DNA of 64,000 nucleotides from an uncultured Kordiimonas sp. (lineage in GTDB: Bacteria; Pseudomonadota; Alphaproteobacteria; Sphingomonadales; Kordiimonadaceae). Shown piece by piece: positions 5,344 to 14,368 of the stretch. Numbering within the stretch: position 1 is the first letter of the stretch; the number at the start of each line of letters is the position of its first letter. Below the pieces are notes generated by a model. It did no database searches, was not told where the DNA came from, and worked only from the letters and a program-made list of their open reading frames with translations. Location: the NCBI GenBank assembly GCA_947503575.1, contig CANNDZ010000003.1, positions 159,100 to 223,099 on the forward strand. Direction: 5' to 3'. A program made the translations under genes and the position numbers.

Positions 5344-6102
5344 TTGACACCGAACACCAAACACAGCACCGAGGAAGCGACTGGCCGCTATCACCATGGT
5401 GATTTGCGTAGCGCGCTTATTGATGCCTCAGTAGAGCTGGTTTCTACTACGGGCTCTGAGAGGTTTACGCTAAAAGATGCAAGCCGGATTGCAGGTGTCA
5501 GTGTAGCAGCCCCCTACCGCCATTTTTCTGACAAGTCCGAGTTGCTGCATGAGGTCACGGAAGTGGCTTTCAAAAAAATGTCTGATGACATGCTAAAAAC
5601 ATTGAAAGGCCAAGAACTTGGCACCATCGAGTCGATAACAGCACTGGGGCAAACCTATGTGCGGTTTGCCAGCGAAAACCAACAGTTATTCCGCTTGATG
5701 TGCCAAAATCATCAGGGTGGACCAGATGTCAATCTGGAGGAAATATTCAGACAACATGCTGCGGGGGAAAACGGCGCTGCCATCATTGACCTGCTGGATG
5801 TTAAAAACCATGATATCAGCACAAGCTTGTTGGCGCAGAACGCCCCCAATAATGGGATAGCCTGCTTTTCAATTCTGTTGAAAAGCGTTGCCACTTTTCT
5901 GGACCGAAACGGGCTGGATGTAAGAGAGACTCTGGCTATTGCAACGCCGATGTGGGCCATTGTGCACGGCACAGCATTTTTGTTAATTGATCACAAATTC
6001 AACAATTTAACGCCTAACATTAACACGGATGACATTGTTGAGCGGTCAACCCGTTACTTCCTTAACGGTCTTTTGCTTGAACATTCAGTAGACCCTGAAT
6101 AA
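5344..6102 (+). CDS. TetR/AcrR family regulator (YHHGDLR type, WHG-like C-terminus)
   Basis: YHHGDLRSALI, HTH AGVSVAAPYRHF, WAIVHG; divergent from the RND pair. Confidence 0.9.
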   Translation: MTPNTKHSTEEATGRYHHGDLRSALIDASVELVSTTGSERFTLKDASRIAGVSVAAPYRHFSDKSELLHEVTEVAFKKMSDDMLKTLKGQELGTIESITALGQTYVRFASENQQLFRLMCQNHQGGPDVNLEEIFRQHAAGENGAAIIDLLDVKNHDISTSLLAQNAPNNGIACFSILLKSVATFLDRNGLDVRETLAIATPMWAIVHGTAFLLIDHKFNNLTPNINTDDIVERSTRYFLNGLLLEHSVDPE

Positions 6103-6153: not shown

Positions 6154-7851
6154 TTAATGCGTTGTTGGCTTGGTAGCGCTTGGCTTGGCTTTGGGCGCTC
6201 GTTTCGCTTTTGCAGCCGTTGAAGCCGAAGCCTTAGTAGCCGCTTTTTTACCATTTACGGATTTAGCGCTTGCTGCCTTGCTTGGGGTCCGGGCAGATGC
6301 CGCCTTCGCGGGGGCTGCTTTGGCAGTGCCTGATTTAGCCCCGTTTGCTTTCGCTGGAGCTTTTGGGGTTTTGGGAGGGGCTTTTGTTGCACCTTCTGAA
6401 ACAGGCATTTCCTTACCCGCGGTCAAGGGGTCACCGGCTTTATCTGCCGCTGCCTGCAGTGCCGCGAATTCCTCGACGATAAGATCAGCGATATCCTGGA
6501 CATCTGGCACAGCAATTTTACAAGCGATCAATCCAAAATCGAGCCTGTCGACATAGCTTTGCAGGGTGATATTAAGTGCACATCCATGTGTCGCGATGGA
6601 AACAGGGAATTGCGCAACAACCTTGCTGCCAGCAAAATACATATATCTGCGTGGACCTGGCACATTGGATATGGTCACGTTGATCGGTGACGGCATCATG
6701 TTTACAAGGTCCGTCCGGCTTTGCATCTGCGCCATAGCAGACACAATAATAGGCGCACCAAAGAACACATAATCCTGTGGAATTACGTCCTTAACAGCGC
6801 CCAACTGCTTTTTGGATGCTTTTGTGCTTTCCTGTACAGACCGCAACCGCTTCATGGGGTCGGCAATATCGGTGCCCAGGCCGCAGGTCATACCTGTGAC
6901 CTGATTGGTATTGGCGGCATCGCCAAATTCCCGCAATGAAACCGGCACCGCCGCCACAAGCGAGTCTTCGGGCAATTCTTTGTGCCCATCTAGATAACGG
7001 CGCAAAGCACCGCCACAAATGGTGAGCACCACGTCATTCAGCGTGGAACCCGTTTTCTTCGCCAAAGCAATTGTTTCCGGCAACGACAGCGACTGAGCGC
7101 CGTAAGCACGTTGTTTCTGGATACGAACGTTAAACCGTGTTTTAGGCGCAGGCTTCAGGTTTTTGGCCAAGGCACTGCGGTCTTCAAAGGCGACTTTAGC
7201 GAGTGAGCCGACGGCTTTCACCATGTCTGGCACCTTTTTAACCACATCCACTTGCTGCTGCAGGAAACGACCATATGAACTACCCAGCAGCTCAAACATG
7301 CCTGGTTTTTCGGCCTGCAGCCGGATTTTATTCTTGGGTAAAGGCGGGCGCGGCACAGGTGCCCGGTCAGAAATAATATCCATAACGGCAATGCCGGCAC
7401 CACCGTCAACGCTGGCGTGATGGCTTTTTGTATAGAGCGCAAAACTGCCTTTTGGTAGCCCGAACTCTTCGTCTTCCAGGCCTTCGATGACATAAAATTG
7501 CCAAAGCGGCCGATCCCGATCCAGGGTCAGCGAATGCAGTCCCTGAATAATCATCCGAAGCTGTTCCACATTGCCTGGTGCAGGCAAGCTGGAGTGTTTG
7601 ATATGATAATCAAAGTCGATAGTGTCAGCGTTAACCCACACAGGATGATCGACATAAAAAGGGGTCGCCATCAACTTGCGGTGGAAAGAGGGAATCTCAT
7701 GCGCGCGCTCAGCGATCTGGGATTTCAGTGCTTCGTAGGGGTTGATACCTTCCTCCGGCGGTTCACATATCAACAAAGCAGAGACATGCATCGGTGTCTC
7801 GTCTGTTTCCATGTATAGAAAAGTAGCGTCCAAACCGGTCAATTTATGCAT
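6154..7851 (-). CDS. Wax ester synthase/diacylglycerol acyltransferase (WS/DGAT) with a Lys/Ala/Pro-rich C-terminal tail
   Basis: N-terminus LTGLDATFLYMET..PMHV, catalytic HHASVDG (HHxxxDG), NVTISNVPGP, LNITLQSY; ~90-aa basic low-complexity tail. Confidence 0.93.
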   Translation of the reverse strand: MHKLTGLDATFLYMETDETPMHVSALLICEPPEEGINPYEALKSQIAERAHEIPSFHRKLMATPFYVDHPVWVNADTIDFDYHIKHSSLPAPGNVEQLRMIIQGLHSLTLDRDRPLWQFYVIEGLEDEEFGLPKGSFALYTKSHHASVDGGAGIAVMDIISDRAPVPRPPLPKNKIRLQAEKPGMFELLGSSYGRFLQQQVDVVKKVPDMVKAVGSLAKVAFEDRSALAKNLKPAPKTRFNVRIQKQRAYGAQSLSLPETIALAKKTGSTLNDVVLTICGGALRRYLDGHKELPEDSLVAAVPVSLREFGDAANTNQVTGMTCGLGTDIADPMKRLRSVQESTKASKKQLGAVKDVIPQDYVFFGAPIIVSAMAQMQSRTDLVNMMPSPINVTISNVPGPRRYMYFAGSKVVAQFPVSIATHGCALNITLQSYVDRLDFGLIACKIAVPDVQDIADLIVEEFAALQAAADKAGDPLTAGKEMPVSEGATKAPPKTPKAPAKANGAKSGTAKAAPAKAASARTPSKAASAKSVNGKKAATKASASTAAKAKRAPKAKPSATKPTTH

Positions 7852-7970: not shown

Positions 7971-7988
7971 TTAGAAATATCGCCCTAA
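7971..7988. promoter_or_regulatory. Possible degenerate copy of the phasin promoter box (TTAG-N10-CTAR)
   Basis: TTAGAAATATCGCCCTAA about 120 bp upstream of WS/DGAT; shares TTAGAAA and CTA spacing with the boxes at 13944 and 14348. Confidence 0.3.
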
Positions 7989-8079: not shown

Positions 8080-8880
8080 TCAGGCCGGTACAGCCTCACC
8101 AAGCCCCGGTGTGCTGAAGAACGCTTTGCGGCTGCCTACATTAGTGAAGGGACGCCAAGTTCCTTCACGCTGAGCCAGTCTATCAGCAATAACATACAAA
8201 ACCGTAGGGTTGAAACCGAGGCCACAATGGCTTCCGGAAACCCGTATATTTTCGGTTTGCTTCTGCTTCACTTCACATACCGGCTTGTCCTGATGGCAAT
8301 TCTGCCACGCCACGATACCGTCTGTTTTGGTATAAATAGACGTTGTTGGCACCGGCGGTGCCTTGTGCATCATTGTTTCAATAGGCGGTTCATCAACAGA
8401 ATGGCCCGCCGCAAATTCATAAAAACGCCAGGCGTTTGAATTTTTGGGGTCGCCGGAATGCGGGCTGCCCAGTGAAATGACCAGCCGCGTTTGTTCGGGC
8501 CTCATTTTAGCGAGTTCGCGAGCGAAAATCCCGCCAAGGCTCCACCCCACAAGGCTAACTTTTTGCTGATGCGTCTCATAAACTTCGTCAATACGGTCCA
8601 GCATTCCTTCCAGAATACCGTCGCGCAGGCCAAGGTTACGGCCCAAACCCCAAGCGTAAGACGAATAACCGCGGTCAGTTAGAAAAGAACGAAGCGGCGC
8701 GGTAGACGAATCTGCCGCTCCTAACCCTGGCAACACCAAAACCGGGTGACCATCGCCGCGCGGCAATCGTTTTAGAAACGGTGTCGAAAGAGCCATTGTC
8801 CCAAGTTCCAGAAGGGCGCGCCCTTCCATCAACATCAAAAGGGGTGAAGGCGCTTTTACTTTACCAGAAAAATTGAACAC
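8080..8880 (-). CDS. Alpha/beta hydrolase (lipase/esterase, PGAP1-like)
   Basis: Oxyanion VLVLPGL, GWSLGG, DGIV, GSHCGLG; GTG start with AGGAG RBS. Confidence 0.88.
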   Translation of the reverse strand: MFNFSGKVKAPSPLLMLMEGRALLELGTMALSTPFLKRLPRGDGHPVLVLPGLGAADSSTAPLRSFLTDRGYSSYAWGLGRNLGLRDGILEGMLDRIDEVYETHQQKVSLVGWSLGGIFARELAKMRPEQTRLVISLGSPHSGDPKNSNAWRFYEFAAGHSVDEPPIETMMHKAPPVPTTSIYTKTDGIVAWQNCHQDKPVCEVKQKQTENIRVSGSHCGLGFNPTVLYVIADRLAQREGTWRPFTNVGSRKAFFSTPGLGEAVPA

Positions 8881-9089
8881 TCATGTCTCCTCAAAGCTTC
8901 CCTGACCGACCCTTGGGCTATCCAGCATGCAGGGTCATATTTCTGTCACAGAATGACAGCGGCATTTTGTCGCGTCAAACGAACATTCACATTTTTGCTT
9001 AAAAAAGAAACGATTGCACAATTTTTGAGCAATATTATGAAATTTTCTTACTTAAAGGAGGTAAGCAGACTGGCAAATGCGCTCAGGTC

Positions 9090-9731
9090 CTATTTTGACG
9101 TTTTTAACATTTTGTCGCGGAATTCAGTCAGCAAGGTCAGAAATTCATCTCCCCCGTCAACAACATAGGGCGTGAGCTGACTTATAAGACCATAAACACC
9201 ATTATGGATAGAAACCGGCGTTGATACGTCGCTGTCCAACAAAACCTGATACGTGGGCCAATAGGTAAGCTGCAGAGCAAATCGTTCCGCCATCTGGTCC
9301 GCTTCAATTTGGGAAATCGAAATAAAACCCGTTCGGTCAAGAGTGCCGATAATTGACGCCATGGTTGTCACTTTGTGCTGCACAAGACGGCGGAACCGGG
9401 ACTGCAAATCAGGATATCGTTCCAAAATGGATTGAAGATTACGGTAGAAAAACCGGAAATCTGCGATTTCTTCAAACAGGATATAAAAATACACCCAATT
9501 GTCCGATAGTTCCAAAGGCTTGTCGATCGGCGCCGTCAGCACCATCCGAAACTCTTCTTCAAAGTCGACAAAAAGCTGATGGATAATCGGGTCTTTGCCC
9601 TTGAAGTGATAATAGAGGTTGCCGGGGCTTATATCGAGCACGTTGGCAATGTCGACAGGCGTCACATTCTGCTCACCCTCTTCATTAAAGAGCTGCAGGC
9701 TATATTGCAAAATCCTGTCTTTGGTCTTCAT
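9090..9731 (-). CDS. phaD: TetR-family regulator, PhaD-like
   Basis: MKTKDRILQYSLQLFN...ISPGNLYYHFKGK closely resembles Pseudomonas PhaD (MKTRDRIL...ISPGNLYYHF, recalled from memory); located in the pha cluster. Confidence 0.75.
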   Translation of the reverse strand: MKTKDRILQYSLQLFNEEGEQNVTPVDIANVLDISPGNLYYHFKGKDPIIHQLFVDFEEEFRMVLTAPIDKPLELSDNWVYFYILFEEIADFRFFYRNLQSILERYPDLQSRFRRLVQHKVTTMASIIGTLDRTGFISISQIEADQMAERFALQLTYWPTYQVLLDSDVSTPVSIHNGVYGLISQLTPYVVDGGDEFLTLLTEFRDKMLKTSK

Positions 9732-9758: not shown

Positions 9759-10232
9759 TCACGACTTGGTAGCGGTTTTACTGGTTCGCCTGGCGGGTGC
9801 TTTTCCCGAAGTCTTACTGGCAGTCTTTACGGCAGCTTTTCTGGGGGCTGGCTTCGGCTTGGAAACAGCAGCCAAAATGGCGTCAATTTTTTGCTCCAGT
9901 ACGTCCAGTCGTTCTTCGATACGCTCGATGTTTTCCTGCTGGTCCGCCGTGGCTTCCGATATACCAAGCGCCGCTTTCATCCGCTCCATCCGGTCTTCGA
10001 CCTGAGCGCGCTGTTTTTCAGCAAATTCCGGCACGTAAGCTTTGGCAACCCCGGCAACTTTGCCTTCAAGTTCTTCGCCTTTGCCTACCAGGTCCTCAAA
10101 AATCTTCGTCGTCTCCCGACCCATTTTTGCATAAGCCTCGGTTGCATCCCCAACAGCACGACCATAGGCACCAATACCCGCCAACCAAATCTTGCGGGCA
10201 ATATCTTTGTCTTTTCTGGTTTTGTCGGTCAT
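9759..10232 (-). CDS. Phasin family protein (PhaF/PhaI-like) with coiled coil and short basic tail
   Basis: ARKIWLAGIGAY and FEDLVGKGEELE match the PhaI/PhaF granule-binding motif; ATG at 10232 has a GGAGG RBS (ORF track start 10244). Confidence 0.85.
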   Translation of the reverse strand: MTDKTRKDKDIARKIWLAGIGAYGRAVGDATEAYAKMGRETTKIFEDLVGKGEELEGKVAGVAKAYVPEFAEKQRAQVEDRMERMKAALGISEATADQQENIERIEERLDVLEQKIDAILAAVSKPKPAPRKAAVKTASKTSGKAPARRTSKTATKS

Positions 10233-10284
10233 TTCAGCCTCCACAAATCATGACCCGCCTTATGGCTTGTCATCACATCAATAT

Positions 10285-10339
10285 CACGTCGAGCACGGTC
10301 TATGTCGAACGCCGTTATGTCGAATACAGTTATGTCGAA
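10285..10339. repeat. Three 15-bp-period direct repeats (TATGTCGAA core) plus one degenerate copy
   Basis: TATGTCGAA at 10301, 10316 and 10331; CACGTCGAG at 10285. Confidence 0.85.
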
Positions 10340-11172
10340 TAGAGGGCATCCTGGGCGTAATCATCAGCGTGGTCGTCGAGGTACCGTGCGATAATCGGCA
10401 CAACTTGATGAGCACGAGAAACAGCAAACAAATGCCCGCCGCCCTTTACAATATTCAGGTCTGCACGGGGTATAGCCGCCTTCAAAATACGGGAATTGGC
10501 AAGCGGCACAATATTGTCCCGATCACCGGACATAACCAACGTCGGTTGTTTTAAAAACGGCAGCCTGTGCAAACTTGTCCACCCAGCCATTGCCATCAAT
10601 TGGTACAAGTAACCGCGCTTGGTCGGCGGGATAATACGGTTCTTGTGGCTAACGGCGGTTTTATCCGCTGCGTCCCCATACAGGGTTTCAAAGTTCTTGA
10701 GCATATAGTCTGTGTCAATATAACGGCGCGGGTTACCCATTTTACTCAGGGCACTGAAGTTACCCGGCACCATTGCCATACCGGCACTTGTTGCGAGCAA
10801 TACCAAGCTTCTAACCCGGTCCGGGTTACTAATGGCAAATTGCTGTGCGGCACCGCCGCCCCACGACACACCCATAACGTCCACATCAGCGTAGCCAAAC
10901 TCATCCAGAAGCTGATTTGACCATTTAACAATCGTAGAAGGCCTGTATGGCACGGTTGGTGCGGGGGACCCGCCAATGCCCGGCATGTCAAACACAATAA
11001 CATCCGAGCGTTCGCTCATCATTTCACCGAGCGGGGCAACCAGTTCAAGGTTGGCACCAATACCATTGAAAAACATAATCGGGCGTTTGTTACCCCCGGC
11101 GCGCCACCGGGCGGTGCGCAACGTCTGACGGCCTACCTTGACAAGGTTAACCTCTGGCTCGATAGCGGCCAT
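10330..11172 (-). CDS. phaZ: Intracellular PHA depolymerase (Pseudomonas PhaZ type)
   Basis: FNGIGANLEL, FDMPGIGGS, lipase box GVSWGG, GWTSLH, GDRD, GGHLF; ATG at 11172 has a GAGGAG RBS. Confidence 0.9.
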   Translation of the reverse strand: MAAIEPEVNLVKVGRQTLRTARWRAGGNKRPIMFFNGIGANLELVAPLGEMMSERSDVIVFDMPGIGGSPAPTVPYRPSTIVKWSNQLLDEFGYADVDVMGVSWGGGAAQQFAISNPDRVRSLVLLATSAGMAMVPGNFSALSKMGNPRRYIDTDYMLKNFETLYGDAADKTAVSHKNRIIPPTKRGYLYQLMAMAGWTSLHRLPFLKQPTLVMSGDRDNIVPLANSRILKAAIPRADLNIVKGGGHLFAVSRAHQVVPIIARYLDDHADDYAQDALYST

Positions 11173-11305
11173 ATATACTCTCTCCTCAATATGATGCGCC
11201 TTATGCTTTGTGCTGACTGCAGCACCGCGCATCTCTTCCGCCCCAAACGCTCCCAACGCCTGTAGCGGTCGCTTCCCTACTTTTATAGATAAGACTTTTT
11301 AGGAC

Positions 11306-12988
11306 TTATCCAAATACATATGTGCCCGGCGCATCGGCGAGCGGCTTGTATTTCGTGTTACCAAGCCGGTTTGGTGCCGCTTTTTCCTTGCCGGACCTCT
11401 CCTTCAGCCACCCGGACCAAGGCGTCCACCAGGAACCATCCTTCAACTCCGCGCCCGCCATCCAGTCGTCTGCGCTGCCGCCCATACCGTCCGGATTATG
11501 AAAATATTTCGCTTTCGGATTGCCGGGTGGGTTCAGCAGAGACTGGATATGCCCGCTATTGGACACGAAGAATTCGTTTTTACCGCCAAGCAGCTTGGAT
11601 GTGCGGAAACAGGCGCGCCACGGCGTTATATGGTCTGTAACCCCAGCAACAATAAAGCTATCGTGCGTTACCTGCCCCAAATCAAGCTTGTGCCCTTTGA
11701 AGTCCACAGTACCAGGGTTGGCAAACGGTGCCGTCATGTAGCTATCCAGAAAATCTGAATGCAAACCTGCAGGCAAATTCGTAGTATCATTGTTCCAGAA
11801 CAAAATATCAAATGCGGGCGGCGCATCTCCCAGCAGGTAATTGTTGACCACATAATTCCAGATCAGATCGTTCGGGCGCATCCAGGCAAAAGTCCGCGAC
11901 AGATCGTCCCCCGACAAAATACCCTTTTGCGCCGAGCGCGCGCGCGCCAGTTCAAGCGTTTCTTCCGACACAAGCGCCCCGACCTCGCTGTCTTCCTGGC
12001 GTGGGTCAAGCACGCATACCTGGAACGTTGATGAGTTTACGCGGTCGTCGCCCATCGCCGCCAAATGGCTCAAGAGCGTTGCAACCGTTATGCCCCCCGA
12101 ACAGGCACCGGAGACGTTAATTTTTTTGGACCGGGTAACTTTCATGACGGCGTCCATCGCTTCGACAACCGCATCAATGTATGTTTCCAGATGCCAGTCT
12201 GCCTGCTCTACGCCGGGGTTGCGCCAGCTTATGGCGAACAGCTGTATGCCTTGCGACAACAAAAACCGGAACAGGCTTTTGTCAGGCGTAAGATCAGACG
12301 CGTAAAATTTGTTGATCTGCGGCGGGATGATCATCAGCGGAATTTCATGCACTTTATCTGTCGTCGGCGTGTATTGGATCACTTCTAGCACTTCGCTGCG
12401 GAAAACTACCGAGCCTGGTGTTGTGGCCAGGTTTTCACCAACCTTGAACGGCCTGCTGTCGACCTGAGATGGGATGCCGATCCCGTTGACCATGTCATTA
12501 TAGGCGTTTTTCAGGCCGGCGATAATGGACATACCCCCCGTTTCATAGAGGCGCTTCATTGCCGCTGGGTTGCCGATCAGCGAGTTGGTGGGCGCAAGCG
12601 CATCTGTCACAACATCAAGGATGAAATGGGCACGGGCGCGGTCCATCTCATCAATTTCAGCTTCACTCAGCCAGTTATTCAGGTTTTCCTTCATTGCCAT
12701 CCAAGACTGCATACCCCTGCGGTACAAAGGGTTGAAGGCCCACGCGCGGTCTTGAAAGCGGCGATCTTTCGCATGGGGAGCATATTCGCTGTCCCCTTTC
12801 ACGATGTCGACCATATCCTTACCGTAGTTCAGGAAATGCTGACCAAATGTGGCTGGATTGGTTGCGGCTTGCTTGAGAACAACGCCTAATGACTTCACAA
12901 GCTCTGACCGGTGAACGCCAACAATTGGGCTGAAGGCCGTTGTTGCTTCTGCGGCGCGCTCGCCGACGGATTTTTTGGACCGTGCCAT
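11306..12988 (-). CDS. phaC: Class II poly(3-hydroxyalkanoate) synthase
   Basis: 560 aa, PPQINKFY, catalytic GACSGG (C296), WMRPNDLIWNY, DHITPW, SGHIQS, APGTYV. Confidence 0.95.
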   Translation of the reverse strand: MARSKKSVGERAAEATTAFSPIVGVHRSELVKSLGVVLKQAATNPATFGQHFLNYGKDMVDIVKGDSEYAPHAKDRRFQDRAWAFNPLYRRGMQSWMAMKENLNNWLSEAEIDEMDRARAHFILDVVTDALAPTNSLIGNPAAMKRLYETGGMSIIAGLKNAYNDMVNGIGIPSQVDSRPFKVGENLATTPGSVVFRSEVLEVIQYTPTTDKVHEIPLMIIPPQINKFYASDLTPDKSLFRFLLSQGIQLFAISWRNPGVEQADWHLETYIDAVVEAMDAVMKVTRSKKINVSGACSGGITVATLLSHLAAMGDDRVNSSTFQVCVLDPRQEDSEVGALVSEETLELARARSAQKGILSGDDLSRTFAWMRPNDLIWNYVVNNYLLGDAPPAFDILFWNNDTTNLPAGLHSDFLDSYMTAPFANPGTVDFKGHKLDLGQVTHDSFIVAGVTDHITPWRACFRTSKLLGGKNEFFVSNSGHIQSLLNPPGNPKAKYFHNPDGMGGSADDWMAGAELKDGSWWTPWSGWLKERSGKEKAAPNRLGNTKYKPLADAPGTYVFG

Positions 12989-13072: not shown

Positions 13073-13100
13073 AAAAAAACAAAGCGACCGAGGTCGCTTT
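13073..13100 (-). terminator. Intrinsic terminator downstream of the PhaF-like gene
   Basis: Minus strand AAAGCGACC-TC-GGTCGCTTT followed by GTTTTTTT. Confidence 0.8.
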
Positions 13101-13143
13101 GAGTTTCTGCCAGGTACAAAGCCCACGGCAGAATAGAGATAAT

Positions 13144-13193
13144 GGCTGACAGACCTACTCAGGGGAGGGGGGAAGGGACTAAGCCTGTCAGCC
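13144..13193 (-). ncRNA. Candidate 3'UTR RNA hairpin with a C-rich (anti-SD-like) loop
   Basis: Minus strand GGCTGACAGGCTTA / TAGGTCTGTCAGCC 14-bp stem (includes two G-U pairs) around the loop GTCCCTTCCCCCCTCCCCTGAG. Confidence 0.35.
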
Positions 13194-13226
13194 TATTAGA
13201 CCCGAAGGACTAATAATTCTTTTTAC

Positions 13227-13844
13227 TTATGACTTTACGTCAGTTTTTGCTTCAACTGCAGCAGCTTTAGGGTCTACTTTCGGCGCTGCCGCTTTTGGCG
13301 CAGCTGCTTTAGGAGCGGCCGCTTTTGGAGCAACAGCTTTCTTCGGCGCAGGTGCAGCCTTTTTAACCGCTGGCTTTGCGACCGCTTTCTTCGCAACTAC
13401 TTTTTTAGCAGCAGCTTTTTTCACAGCAGGTTTTGCAGCTGGTTTAGACGTATTCACTTTCCGGCTCAGCGCATTTACTGTTTTCGTCAGCTTTGCAACT
13501 TCGGCAGACAGCTCTTCCACACGGTTGTTTCCACCAGCGCGGTTAAACACTTTGTTGCCAGCTTCTGAAACTTTTTCGCTTACTTCGTTGAAGCGTGCAG
13601 TCACGTCGGTAACGCGAGGCTCTACGTAACCGCGAACTTTTTCGATGTTACCTTGGGCCATGCCTTCAACTTCTTCGCCTTTTTGAACCAGGTCTTCAAC
13701 CAGTTCATCGCGACCGTTCATAAGCTTGTTCACGCCTTCTTGGGCGAAATCAAAAGCTGATTTGTGAGCGCCGAGCCATGCAAGGTAACCCTGACGGTAA
13801 GCGCGGACGACTTTAGAGTTTTGAATGTTGTCCATAAGTGCCAT
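13227..13844 (-). CDS. Phasin-like protein with histone H1-like C-terminal tail (PhaF architecture)
   Basis: N-terminal RQGYLAWLGAHK...EDLVQKGEEVE, heptad RVEELSAEVAKLTKTVNAL, then a KPAAK/AKKAV/PKAAA repeat tail; ATG at 13844 with AAGGA RBS. Confidence 0.75.
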   Translation of the reverse strand: MALMDNIQNSKVVRAYRQGYLAWLGAHKSAFDFAQEGVNKLMNGRDELVEDLVQKGEEVEGMAQGNIEKVRGYVEPRVTDVTARFNEVSEKVSEAGNKVFNRAGGNNRVEELSAEVAKLTKTVNALSRKVNTSKPAAKPAVKKAAAKKVVAKKAVAKPAVKKAAPAPKKAVAPKAAAPKAAAPKAAAPKVDPKAAAVEAKTDVKS

Positions 13845-13927
13845 GATCAATTCCTTATCAAATATAATCGTGTTTTGCGTGAGCTTGACGCTTTTGCTTG
13901 TGCGCGACGCTCGTTTATCCTGAGATC

Positions 13928-13964
13928 AAAGTAGCGGGGAAAATTAGAAAGCGCATACTAGAGC
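13928..13964 (-). promoter_or_regulatory. Promoter with the conserved 21-bp box
   Basis: TTAGAAAGCGCATACTAGAGC at 13944-13964; minus strand ATGCGC-17bp-TACTTT. Confidence 0.6.
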
Positions 13965-14003
13965 GTTATTTTCCCCGATACCTTTTGTTGGTCGGGTGTC
14001 TGA

Positions 14004-14234
14004 TTACTCAGCTGTGCGACCGAAAAAACCGTTCACACGCTCACGAGCGCCGGTTTCAACCGCTTCACCTTTTTGAACCAGATCTTCGATCAATTCATCG
14101 CGACCGTTGATCAGCTTGTTCATGTTATCTTGCGCAAGCTCGAAAGCCGCTTTGTGAGCGCCGAGCCACGCCAAGTAGCCCTGACGGTAAGAGCGAACAA
14201 CCTGTGAGTTCTGAATGTCTTCCAAAATAGCCAT
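14004..14234 (-). CDS. Short phasin-like protein (76 aa), paralog of the N-terminal domain of 13227..13844
   Basis: YRQGYLAWLGAHK and NGRDEL(I/V)EDLVQKGE shared with the downstream paralog; AAGGA RBS. Confidence 0.75.
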   Translation of the reverse strand: MAILEDIQNSQVVRSYRQGYLAWLGAHKAAFELAQDNMNKLINGRDELIEDLVQKGEAVETGARERVNGFFGRTAE

Positions 14235-14331
14235 GATATAGTCCTTTCAATCGTCTCTTTGTTTTCAATGTAACCAACTGACTGTGTCGATTTGACTTGG
14301 TGCGCCGGTTGGTTCGTTAACCTTGAGATGG

Positions 14332-14368
14332 AATGTAAGGAAAAACTTTAGAAAGCGCATACTAGAGC
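14332..14368 (-). promoter_or_regulatory. Promoter with the identical 21-bp box
   Basis: TTAGAAAGCGCATACTAGAGC at 14348-14368; minus strand ATGCGC-17bp-TACATT. Confidence 0.6.

Follow-up and report, generated by a model that had tools for sequence, protein, structure and literature searches.

We analyzed a 64,000-nucleotide stretch of a genome from an uncultured Kordiimonas sp. (contig CANNDZ010000003.1, positions 159,100 to 223,099; hereafter the window), which carries a hybrid polyhydroxyalkanoate (PHA)/wax-ester storage locus. The promoters of its two phasin-like genes, named here phaI-like and phaF-like, share an identical 21-bp box, TTAGAAAGCGCATACTAGAGC. We consider this box, with a probability of about 0.85, to be the operator of the PhaD-like TetR-family regulator that is encoded in the same cluster at positions 9090-9731. 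An earlier sequence-only reading of the window had proposed this assignment, and the comparative tests favour it: the box is conserved, it occurs together with the regulator gene in nine of nine genomes and in none of 32 others, it is found at distant loci, and variants of it occupy the promoters PI (phaI) and PC1 (phaC1) of Pseudomonas-type clusters.

The repeated box and the promoters of the phasin-like genes

Two exact copies of TTAGAAAGCGCATACTAGAGC are present in the window, at positions 14348-14368 (box 1, phaI-like promoter) and 13944-13964 (box 2, phaF-like promoter), and they are the only two in the entire 3.6-Mb genome. No further match with up to three mismatches was found in the window, and 100 shuffles gave an expectation of 0. 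Both copies lie in non-coding DNA about 100-115 bp upstream of the two paralogous phasin-like genes; the phaI-like protein is 66% identical to the N-terminus of the phaF-like protein over the length of the short protein. Outside the box, the upstream regions show 51% identity over 123 alignable columns, with 57 gapped columns, and the beginnings of the paralogous coding sequences agree at 63% of their third codon positions. Against this background the 21/21 match is an island of identity, and the exact repeat amid diverged flanks that the sequence-only reading had described was confirmed at both positions. The core of the box had also been described as a dyad, which is correct for an imperfect one: the 16-bp core TAGWAWGCGCWTWCTA is self-complementary at 12 of its 16 positions, the four W positions being non-complementary in the actual sequence. 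Genome-wide, exact copies of this 16-bp core are limited to the two in the window, and the four matches with two mismatches were not above the reversed-pattern control.

Judged from the orthologous promoters described below, in which the core is constant and the flanks are scrambled, the conserved element is 17-18 bp of the 21 identical bases. The functional core reads (T/C)TAGTATGCGCTTTCTAA on the coding strand. The additional shared GCTC looks specific to the lineage of this genome. On the side of positions 13962-13964 the phaF copy reads GCTCTAG, like the phaI copy (14366-14368), whereas all other species have CGATTAG at phaF, which suggests that in this lineage a short gene conversion replaced the phaF sequence with that of the phaI copy. 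The change to GCTCTAG turns the left half-site from TTAG into CTAG.

On the coding strand, both copies were found to read ATGCGC-17 bp-TAnnnT as originally stated, the predicted -10 hexamer being TACATT for the phaI-like and TACTTT for the phaF-like promoter. To describe this geometry across taxa, we used 51 distinct sites with at most one weighted mismatch. In 47 of them a TA follows exactly 10 nt past the box, and 38 of these 47 have TAnnnT; this fixed distance confirms the earlier claim that the box overlaps a weak -35 region. The spacer between box and -10 region is rich in T at first and in C thereafter. All 51 sites have ATG at box positions 6-8, where it lacks a symmetric partner. Given the 17-bp spacer, this conserved ATG is the start of the predicted -35 hexamer (ATGCGC here). 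The element as a whole would thus be a dyad operator fused with a weak -35 region, which would account for the conserved asymmetry and orientation of the box. With 2/6 and 3-4/6 matches to the consensus, the hexamers are poor, and for this reason a strict sigma-70 promoter scan of the region was empty; an extended -10 was also absent from it.

A second block, tcAAGGTTAACGA, containing the near-palindrome GGTTAAC, is common to both phasin promoters (minus strand, positions ~14313-14325 and ~13909-13921). It begins about 7 nt past the -10 hexamer, at the presumed transcription start, and occurs genus-wide, but was not seen in distant taxa.

Conservation of the box and its association with PhaD-like regulators

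The sequence-only reading implied that the box should be kept in orthologous promoters, and phylogenetic footprinting bore this out. In eight other genomes of the same genus, each from a different species, the core is invariant upstream of both phasin genes while the flanks have diverged, and the phasins themselves are only 54-95% identical to those of the window. Conservation upstream of phaI orthologues was seen in seven genomes. The phaI copies read nnTCTAGTATGCGCTTTCTAA and the phaF copies of the other species CGATTAGTATGCGCTTTCTAA. Among the 41 related genomes that were compared, the phasin pair is present in nine, and the same nine, and only they, have a PhaD-like TetR gene. The exact pattern TAGTATGCG(C/G)TTTCTAA and its one-mismatch copies are confined to these nine genomes; in the other 32 of the 41 relatives there was no exact and no one-mismatch box, and the scattered matches with two mismatches were at control level.

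To look beyond the genus, we collected 80 distant loci, one genome per species, which were retrieved solely via homologues of the PhaD-like TetR (33-51% identity). A box with up to two weighted mismatches and the downstream TA was present at 26 of the 80 loci, and a box with at most one mismatch at 22, compared to about 0.4 expected in 1.28 Mb by our own arithmetic. These boxes are located between 75 bp and 4.1 kb from the TetR gene. In the form TTAGTATG-N4-TTCTAR, the motif precedes PF05597 phasin genes that adjoin PF13972 TetR genes; this holds for alpha- and gammaproteobacteria and, in looser form, for betaproteobacteria. Carriers include Parvibaculum, Hyphomonas, Henriciella, Algimonas, Hellea and Robiginitomaculum among the Alphaproteobacteria, Halieaceae, Spongiibacteraceae and Porticoccus among the Gammaproteobacteria and, with looser versions, Massilia, Accumulibacter and Lautropia among the Betaproteobacteria. 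In nearly all sites examined the box points to a gene whose product has a phasin signature, and seven of the eight such products that were scanned match PF05597 above the cut-off.

The regulator that gives the PhaD-like protein its name has been characterized in P. putida. PhaD is an unusual activator of the TetR family that acts on PI and PC1, as the sequence-only reading had stated; its operators measure 25 bp in PC1 and 29 bp in PI, each with a single site in which 8 bp separate two inverted 6-bp half-sites, and a coenzyme A (CoA) intermediate of beta-oxidation has been proposed as effector (PMC7590123; PMC9049629). Binding of PhaD to the phaI and phaC1 promoters was shown experimentally in this organism (de Eugenio et al. 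2010, as summarised in PMC7590123). We recognized Pseudomonas-type clusters by their gene order, phaC1-phaZ-phaC2-phaD with convergent phaF-phaI, and found this arrangement in two genomes of the order containing Marinobacter. Their PI promoters carry the variants TTAGGGTGCCGATTCTAA and CTAGTATGTGATTTCTAA, each followed by tttttc..cTAC, and their PC1 promoters the variants TTAGAGGGCATTTTCTAA and CTAGGGCGCATTTTCTAA. In a Pseudomonas-type cluster, PhaD shows the two Pfam domains of the 9090-9731 protein; identity between the two proteins is 38% overall and rises to about 70% within the first 50 residues. All of 15 diverse TetR homologues share an unchanged helix-turn-helix stretch, SPGNLYYHF. When read as nTTAGn-N8-nCTAAn, the motif is a 20-bp dyad that fits 6-bp half-sites 8 bp apart. 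Complementarity of the half-sites is 5/6 in the other species (ATTAGT-N8-TCTAAT) and 3-4/6 in the window (TCTAGT-N8-TCTAA(T/A)), where the CTAG of the left half lowers it. No solved structure of a close homologue together with DNA was found; the best structural matches, 3rh2 and 3nnr, are uncharacterised TetR-family entries.

In Marinobacter (L110, L111, L112) and a Halomonadaceae genome (L109), all from wax-ester-storing genera, a box reading TTAGTATGAACATTCTAA with TA after 10 nt lies far from the PhaD-like TetR gene. It precedes genes for small (131-155 aa) apolipoprotein-like proteins with basic AKP/KK tails, which are candidate lipid-body coat proteins under PhaD-type control.

A third box and further features of the locus

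A position weight matrix (PWM) built from the collected sites was run over the whole genome, with the reversed genome as control. The two phasin boxes ranked first (26.5 bits each), followed by a looser box upstream of the gene for the wax ester synthase/diacylglycerol acyltransferase (WS/DGAT) with 19.6 bits (box 3), which is marginal on score alone, as the control maximum was 18.8 bits. The sequence-only reading had pointed to a looser TTAG-N10-CTAA upstream of this gene, and we located it at 7971-7988 on the minus strand. Box 3 is conserved as TTAGGGCG(A/C)(A/T)(A/T)TTTCTAA in all seven genomes that have the hydrolase-WS/DGAT gene order, with ATAATG about 10 nt downstream in most of these species, and it resembles the PC1 boxes of the Pseudomonas-type clusters. 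The genome scan revealed no site above background outside the cluster, the next real hits scoring 18.8 and 18.7 bits. In the alignments, no box was found at phaC, phaZ, the PF05597 phasin gene, the TetR gene itself or the hydrolase gene, and other conserved elements are present instead upstream of phaC and of the hydrolase gene. The suggestion of a storage-lipid regulon therefore holds in a modest form, as far as predicted sites can tell: it would comprise three promoters, all within the locus, and the scan gave nothing for a regulon beyond the cluster.

In a related genome (G012, L134, C1:3774700-3778700), an extra strong box, TTAGTATGTGCTTTCTAA, is located outside the cluster at locus position 1968 and is followed after 8 nt by TATATG. 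It lies upstream of a gene for a 251-aa hydrolase with 45% identity to the lipase-like hydrolase of the cluster (8080-8880).

The genes of the locus are arranged on the minus strand in the order phaI-like, phaF-like, PhaC, PHA depolymerase, PF05597 phasin, TetR, hydrolase, WS/DGAT (Table 1). The product of 9759-10244 is the sole protein of the cluster that matches PF05597 above the cut-off, yet its gene has no box. In the box-bearing pair the match to PF05597 is weak or nil, whereas in other taxa it is the canonical PF05597 phasin gene that carries the box.

Table 1. Features of the storage-lipid locus (window positions; promoter elements and operator boxes are predictions).
Feature	Position	Strand	Basis or remark
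Operator box 1 (CTAGTATGCGCTTTCTAA), phaI-like promoter	14348..14365	-	Exact repeat, conservation, PWM 26.5 bits; 21-mer extends to 14368
-35-like hexamer ATGCGC (weak), within box 1	14355..14360	-	17 bp upstream of TACATT
-10 hexamer TACATT, phaI-like promoter	14332..14337	-	TA 10 nt past box across taxa
phaI-like short phasin gene, 76 aa, downstream of box 1	14004..14234	-	Phasin-related match weak only
Hairpin enclosing box 2, arms 13968-13977 / 13935-13944	13935..13977	-	Minimum free energy -23.4 kcal/mol, z = -2.69
Operator box 2 (same 18 bp), phaF-like promoter	13944..13961	-	Exact repeat, conservation, PWM 26.5 bits; 21-mer extends to 13964
-35-like hexamer ATGCGC (weak), within box 2	13951..13956	-	17 bp upstream of TACTTT
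-10 hexamer TACTTT, phaF-like promoter	13928..13933	-	Same geometry as phaI-like promoter
phaF-like phasin gene, 205 aa, AKP-rich histone-H1-like tail, downstream of box 2	13227..13844	-	Weak PF05597, PF07382 and apolipoprotein matches
Intrinsic terminator after phaF-like gene	13101..13080	-	
Class II-like PhaC	12988..11306	-	
PHA depolymerase	11256..10330	-	
PF05597 phasin	10244..9759	-	
PhaD-like TetR gene, 213 aa, presumed box binder	9090..9731	-	Pfam PF00440 + PF13972
Lipase-like alpha/beta hydrolase	8880..8080	-	
Operator box 3, looser (TTAGGGCGATATTTCTAA)	7971..7988	-	PWM and conservation; 120 bp upstream of WS/DGAT start, just past hydrolase terminator
WS/DGAT, downstream of box 3	6154..7851	-	PF03007 + PF06974
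Second TetR of the locus, beyond WS/DGAT	5344-6102	+	

Box 2 had been placed in the loop of a 10-bp inverted repeat, and this repeat is present, with the arms CGGGGAAAAT / ATTTTCCCCG and a z-score of -2.69 for the hairpin. All seven species with two phasin genes have such a structure, the phaF box lying in the loop of a 9-12-bp stem whose arms vary compensatorily (GGGGAAAA/TTTTCCCC, GGGGCTAAA/TTTATCCCC, GGGAGAGAAA/TTTTTCTCCC), one species having G-U pairs; no such stem surrounds the phaI copies of the box in the same seven species. The 5' arm follows directly past the phaI stop codon, and the 3' arm coincides with the spacer between box and -10 region of the phaF promoter. A canonical U tract is missing. 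Probably the hairpin forms in RNA at the 3' end of the phaI transcript, where it may serve as terminator, attenuator or stabiliser, and it overlaps with the promoter of phaF.

Upstream of the hydrolase gene (~8881-9089, minus strand), a -35-like hexamer, TTGACG, is conserved, and about 35 bp before it lies a palindrome that is conserved too. The sequence of this palindrome is TTGCACAAATTTTGTGCAA in G004 and TGCCTAAAGAATAGGCA in G010, both arms being changed. It resembles an operator and might serve a further regulator, perhaps the second TetR (5344-6102).

The 3' untranslated region (UTR) of the phaF-like gene (13075-13226, minus strand) contains a conserved structured RNA between the stop codon and the intrinsic terminator. 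It consists of a hairpin, ATTAGTCC-TTCG/TACG-GGTCTAAT, which by chance also reads TTAG-N10-CTAA, followed by a long stem, GGCTGACAGGC.../...GCCTGTCAGCC, around the C-rich loop CCCTTCCCCCCTCCCCT. The RNA is near-invariant across seven genomes, with changes of the wobble type only. An Rfam scan gave no known RNA family at the box; its sub-threshold hit to the alphaproteobacterial small RNA (sRNA) BjrC1505 (24.6 bits, E = 0.049) falls in this 3' UTR. The structure may represent a 3' UTR-derived sRNA with an anti-Shine-Dalgarno-like loop.

Regulatory model, alternatives and related systems

In the mechanism that we propose, a dimer of the PhaD-like TetR would recognise the inverted half-sites TTAG(T/A)A ... 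T(T/A)CTAA, i.e., TTAG-N10-CTAA. This operator would be fused with the promoter, the poor -35 hexamer ATGCGC being placed at its centre and the TAnnnT -10 hexamer 10 nt past its end. If transcription starts about 7 nt past the -10 hexamer, the site would span approximately positions -40 to -23. Three promoters of the locus carry a putative site, those of the phaI-like and phaF-like genes with strong boxes and that of the WS/DGAT gene with the looser one, and coat proteins and neutral-lipid synthase would therefore respond to one regulator sensing a lipid metabolite.

Several observations weigh against this assignment or limit it. For this organism, the binding of the regulator, its ligand, the transcription start and whether control is positive or negative are all inferred. 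The regulator, the phasins and the box are inherited as one block, so that their joint occurrence in the genus does not tell the TetR apart from other genes of the cluster. No canonical box was found near the TetR gene at 54 of the 80 distant loci, and in Marinobacter the box sits elsewhere in the genome, away from the TetR. The left half-site in the window is CTAG and not TTAG, and the phaC gene of the cluster has no box, unlike PC1 of Pseudomonas. Any equivalence in sequence to the P. putida operators is deduced from where the variants lie in Pseudomonas-type clusters and from the published account in words.

Sequence by itself does not tell whether the box serves activation or repression. 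Within the PhaD-operator explanation, activation appears somewhat more likely than repression, since PhaD of P. putida is an activator, both hexamers (-35 and -10) are weak and an extended -10 is lacking. A site over the -35 region is classical repressor geometry, however, which weakens the case for activation. The same protein at the same site might act as a classical TetR repressor that keeps RNA polymerase off the promoter and leaves the DNA on binding a ligand, such as an acyl-CoA or a 3-hydroxyacyl-CoA. The predicted -35 region is covered by the box, as is usual for repressor operators, most TetR-family proteins are repressors (PMC7590123), and the Pfam name of PF13972 is 'bacterial transcriptional repressor'. 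On the other hand, the characterised homologue PhaD activates PI and PC1, and a bare promoter with such poor hexamers and without extended -10 should be weak. We regard repression as a real possibility, if on balance a doubtful one.

The remaining explanations dispense with the PhaD-like TetR as the protein acting at the box. It is improbable that the box belongs to another regulator, either the second TetR (5344-6102) or an unlinked factor, with the PhaD-like TetR binding elsewhere. The second TetR adjoins WS/DGAT in seven genomes, and the co-inheritance of the cluster leaves room for any of its genes, but as a candidate binder it fits the phyletic pattern less well, being missing from two genomes (G003 and G007; G003 is 76% complete) that retain box and PhaD-like gene. 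Furthermore, distant loci that were retrieved by the PhaD-like protein alone still carry the box, and PhaD itself provides the precedent. A PhaR-type regulator was rejected as a candidate, as the complete genome gave no match to PF07879, for which the Caulobacter control gave one. Still less probable is a promoter element for an alternative sigma factor. The strictly conserved orientation and distance to the -10 region and the lack of a canonical sigma-70 promoter would agree with such an element, but the outer blocks TTAG and CTAA make up a dyad with a 10-bp gap, the type of site that a dimer would be expected to bind, TTAGTA lies 22 bp from the -10 region and is too far away for a -35, GG/GC of the sigma-54 type is absent, and PhaD footprints have been reported on PI and PC1 (PMC7590123). 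That the identity of the boxes is a mere relic of tandem duplication or gene conversion, lacking any sequence-specific function, is hardly credible: the genes are indeed paralogues, and identity extends 4 bp (GCTC) past the core, suggesting local conversion, but the core of 17-18 bp has been kept in different species and classes and also at single-copy loci, and the 51% identity of the flanks argues against a recent copy.

If the box is a PhaD operator, the window provides a precise operator/promoter model of how a marine alphaproteobacterium may control a hybrid locus for PHA and wax-ester storage, and suggests that WS/DGAT is wired to the same regulator as the phasins. The signature TTAGTATG-N4-TTCTAR, 10 nt, TAnnnT could serve to search unannotated genomes for PhaD regulons and for genes of phasin-like or lipid-body coat proteins, and in the engineering of storage-lipid production the element might be of use as a compact promoter part that probably responds to a metabolite. 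A wider view, to which we give slightly less than an even chance, is that PhaD and its box form an ancient pan-proteobacterial switch for lipid-droplet coats, whose composite operator/-35 has been kept nearly letter for letter in Alpha-, Beta- and Gammaproteobacteria while the targets shift with the storage compound. These targets would be phaC1 in pseudomonads, WS/DGAT and the lipase-like hydrolase in Kordiimonas-like bacteria, and the small AKP-tailed apolipoprotein-like proteins in Marinobacter. Were this true, one regulator would here couple PHA-granule coat proteins with the synthesis of wax esters and triacylglycerols, and the hairpin around the phaF box would add a link at the RNA level between the phaI and phaF transcripts.

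An operator switch of the PhaD type is already known from Pseudomonas, and no novel kind of mechanism is revealed here. What appears to be new is its predicted presence in a marine alphaproteobacterial hybrid PHA/wax-ester locus, with copies at both phasin genes and WS/DGAT and not at phaC. As in P. putida KT2440/KT2442, a TetR-family regulator (PF00440 and PF13972) is encoded inside a class II-type pha cluster, and phasin and storage-lipid synthase genes have an inverted repeat, here a predicted operator, in their promoters. Unlike in P. putida, the host is an alphaproteobacterium, all genes are co-directional, the regulator is only 38% identical and its binding is a prediction; both phasin genes have their own box, phaC has none, and the enzyme-type box precedes WS/DGAT instead of phaC1. 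The PhaR(AniA)/PhaP systems of Cupriavidus and Paracoccus, and PhbF of Herbaspirillum, likewise employ a dedicated regulator of phasin promoters in step with granule formation, but this regulator belongs to an unrelated protein family (PF07879/PF05233) whose gene is missing from the present genome. PhaR-type operators are TGC-rich. With the classical TetR operators (TetR/tetO, QacR/IR1) the predicted system has in common a homodimeric helix-turn-helix protein on a 15-30-bp dyad overlapping the promoter, and QacR is among the solved structures that are related in sequence to the PhaD-like TetR. Those proteins, however, are drug-responsive repressors of efflux genes, whereas the putative targets here encode storage-lipid coat proteins and a synthase, and the closest characterised relative of the regulator is an activator.

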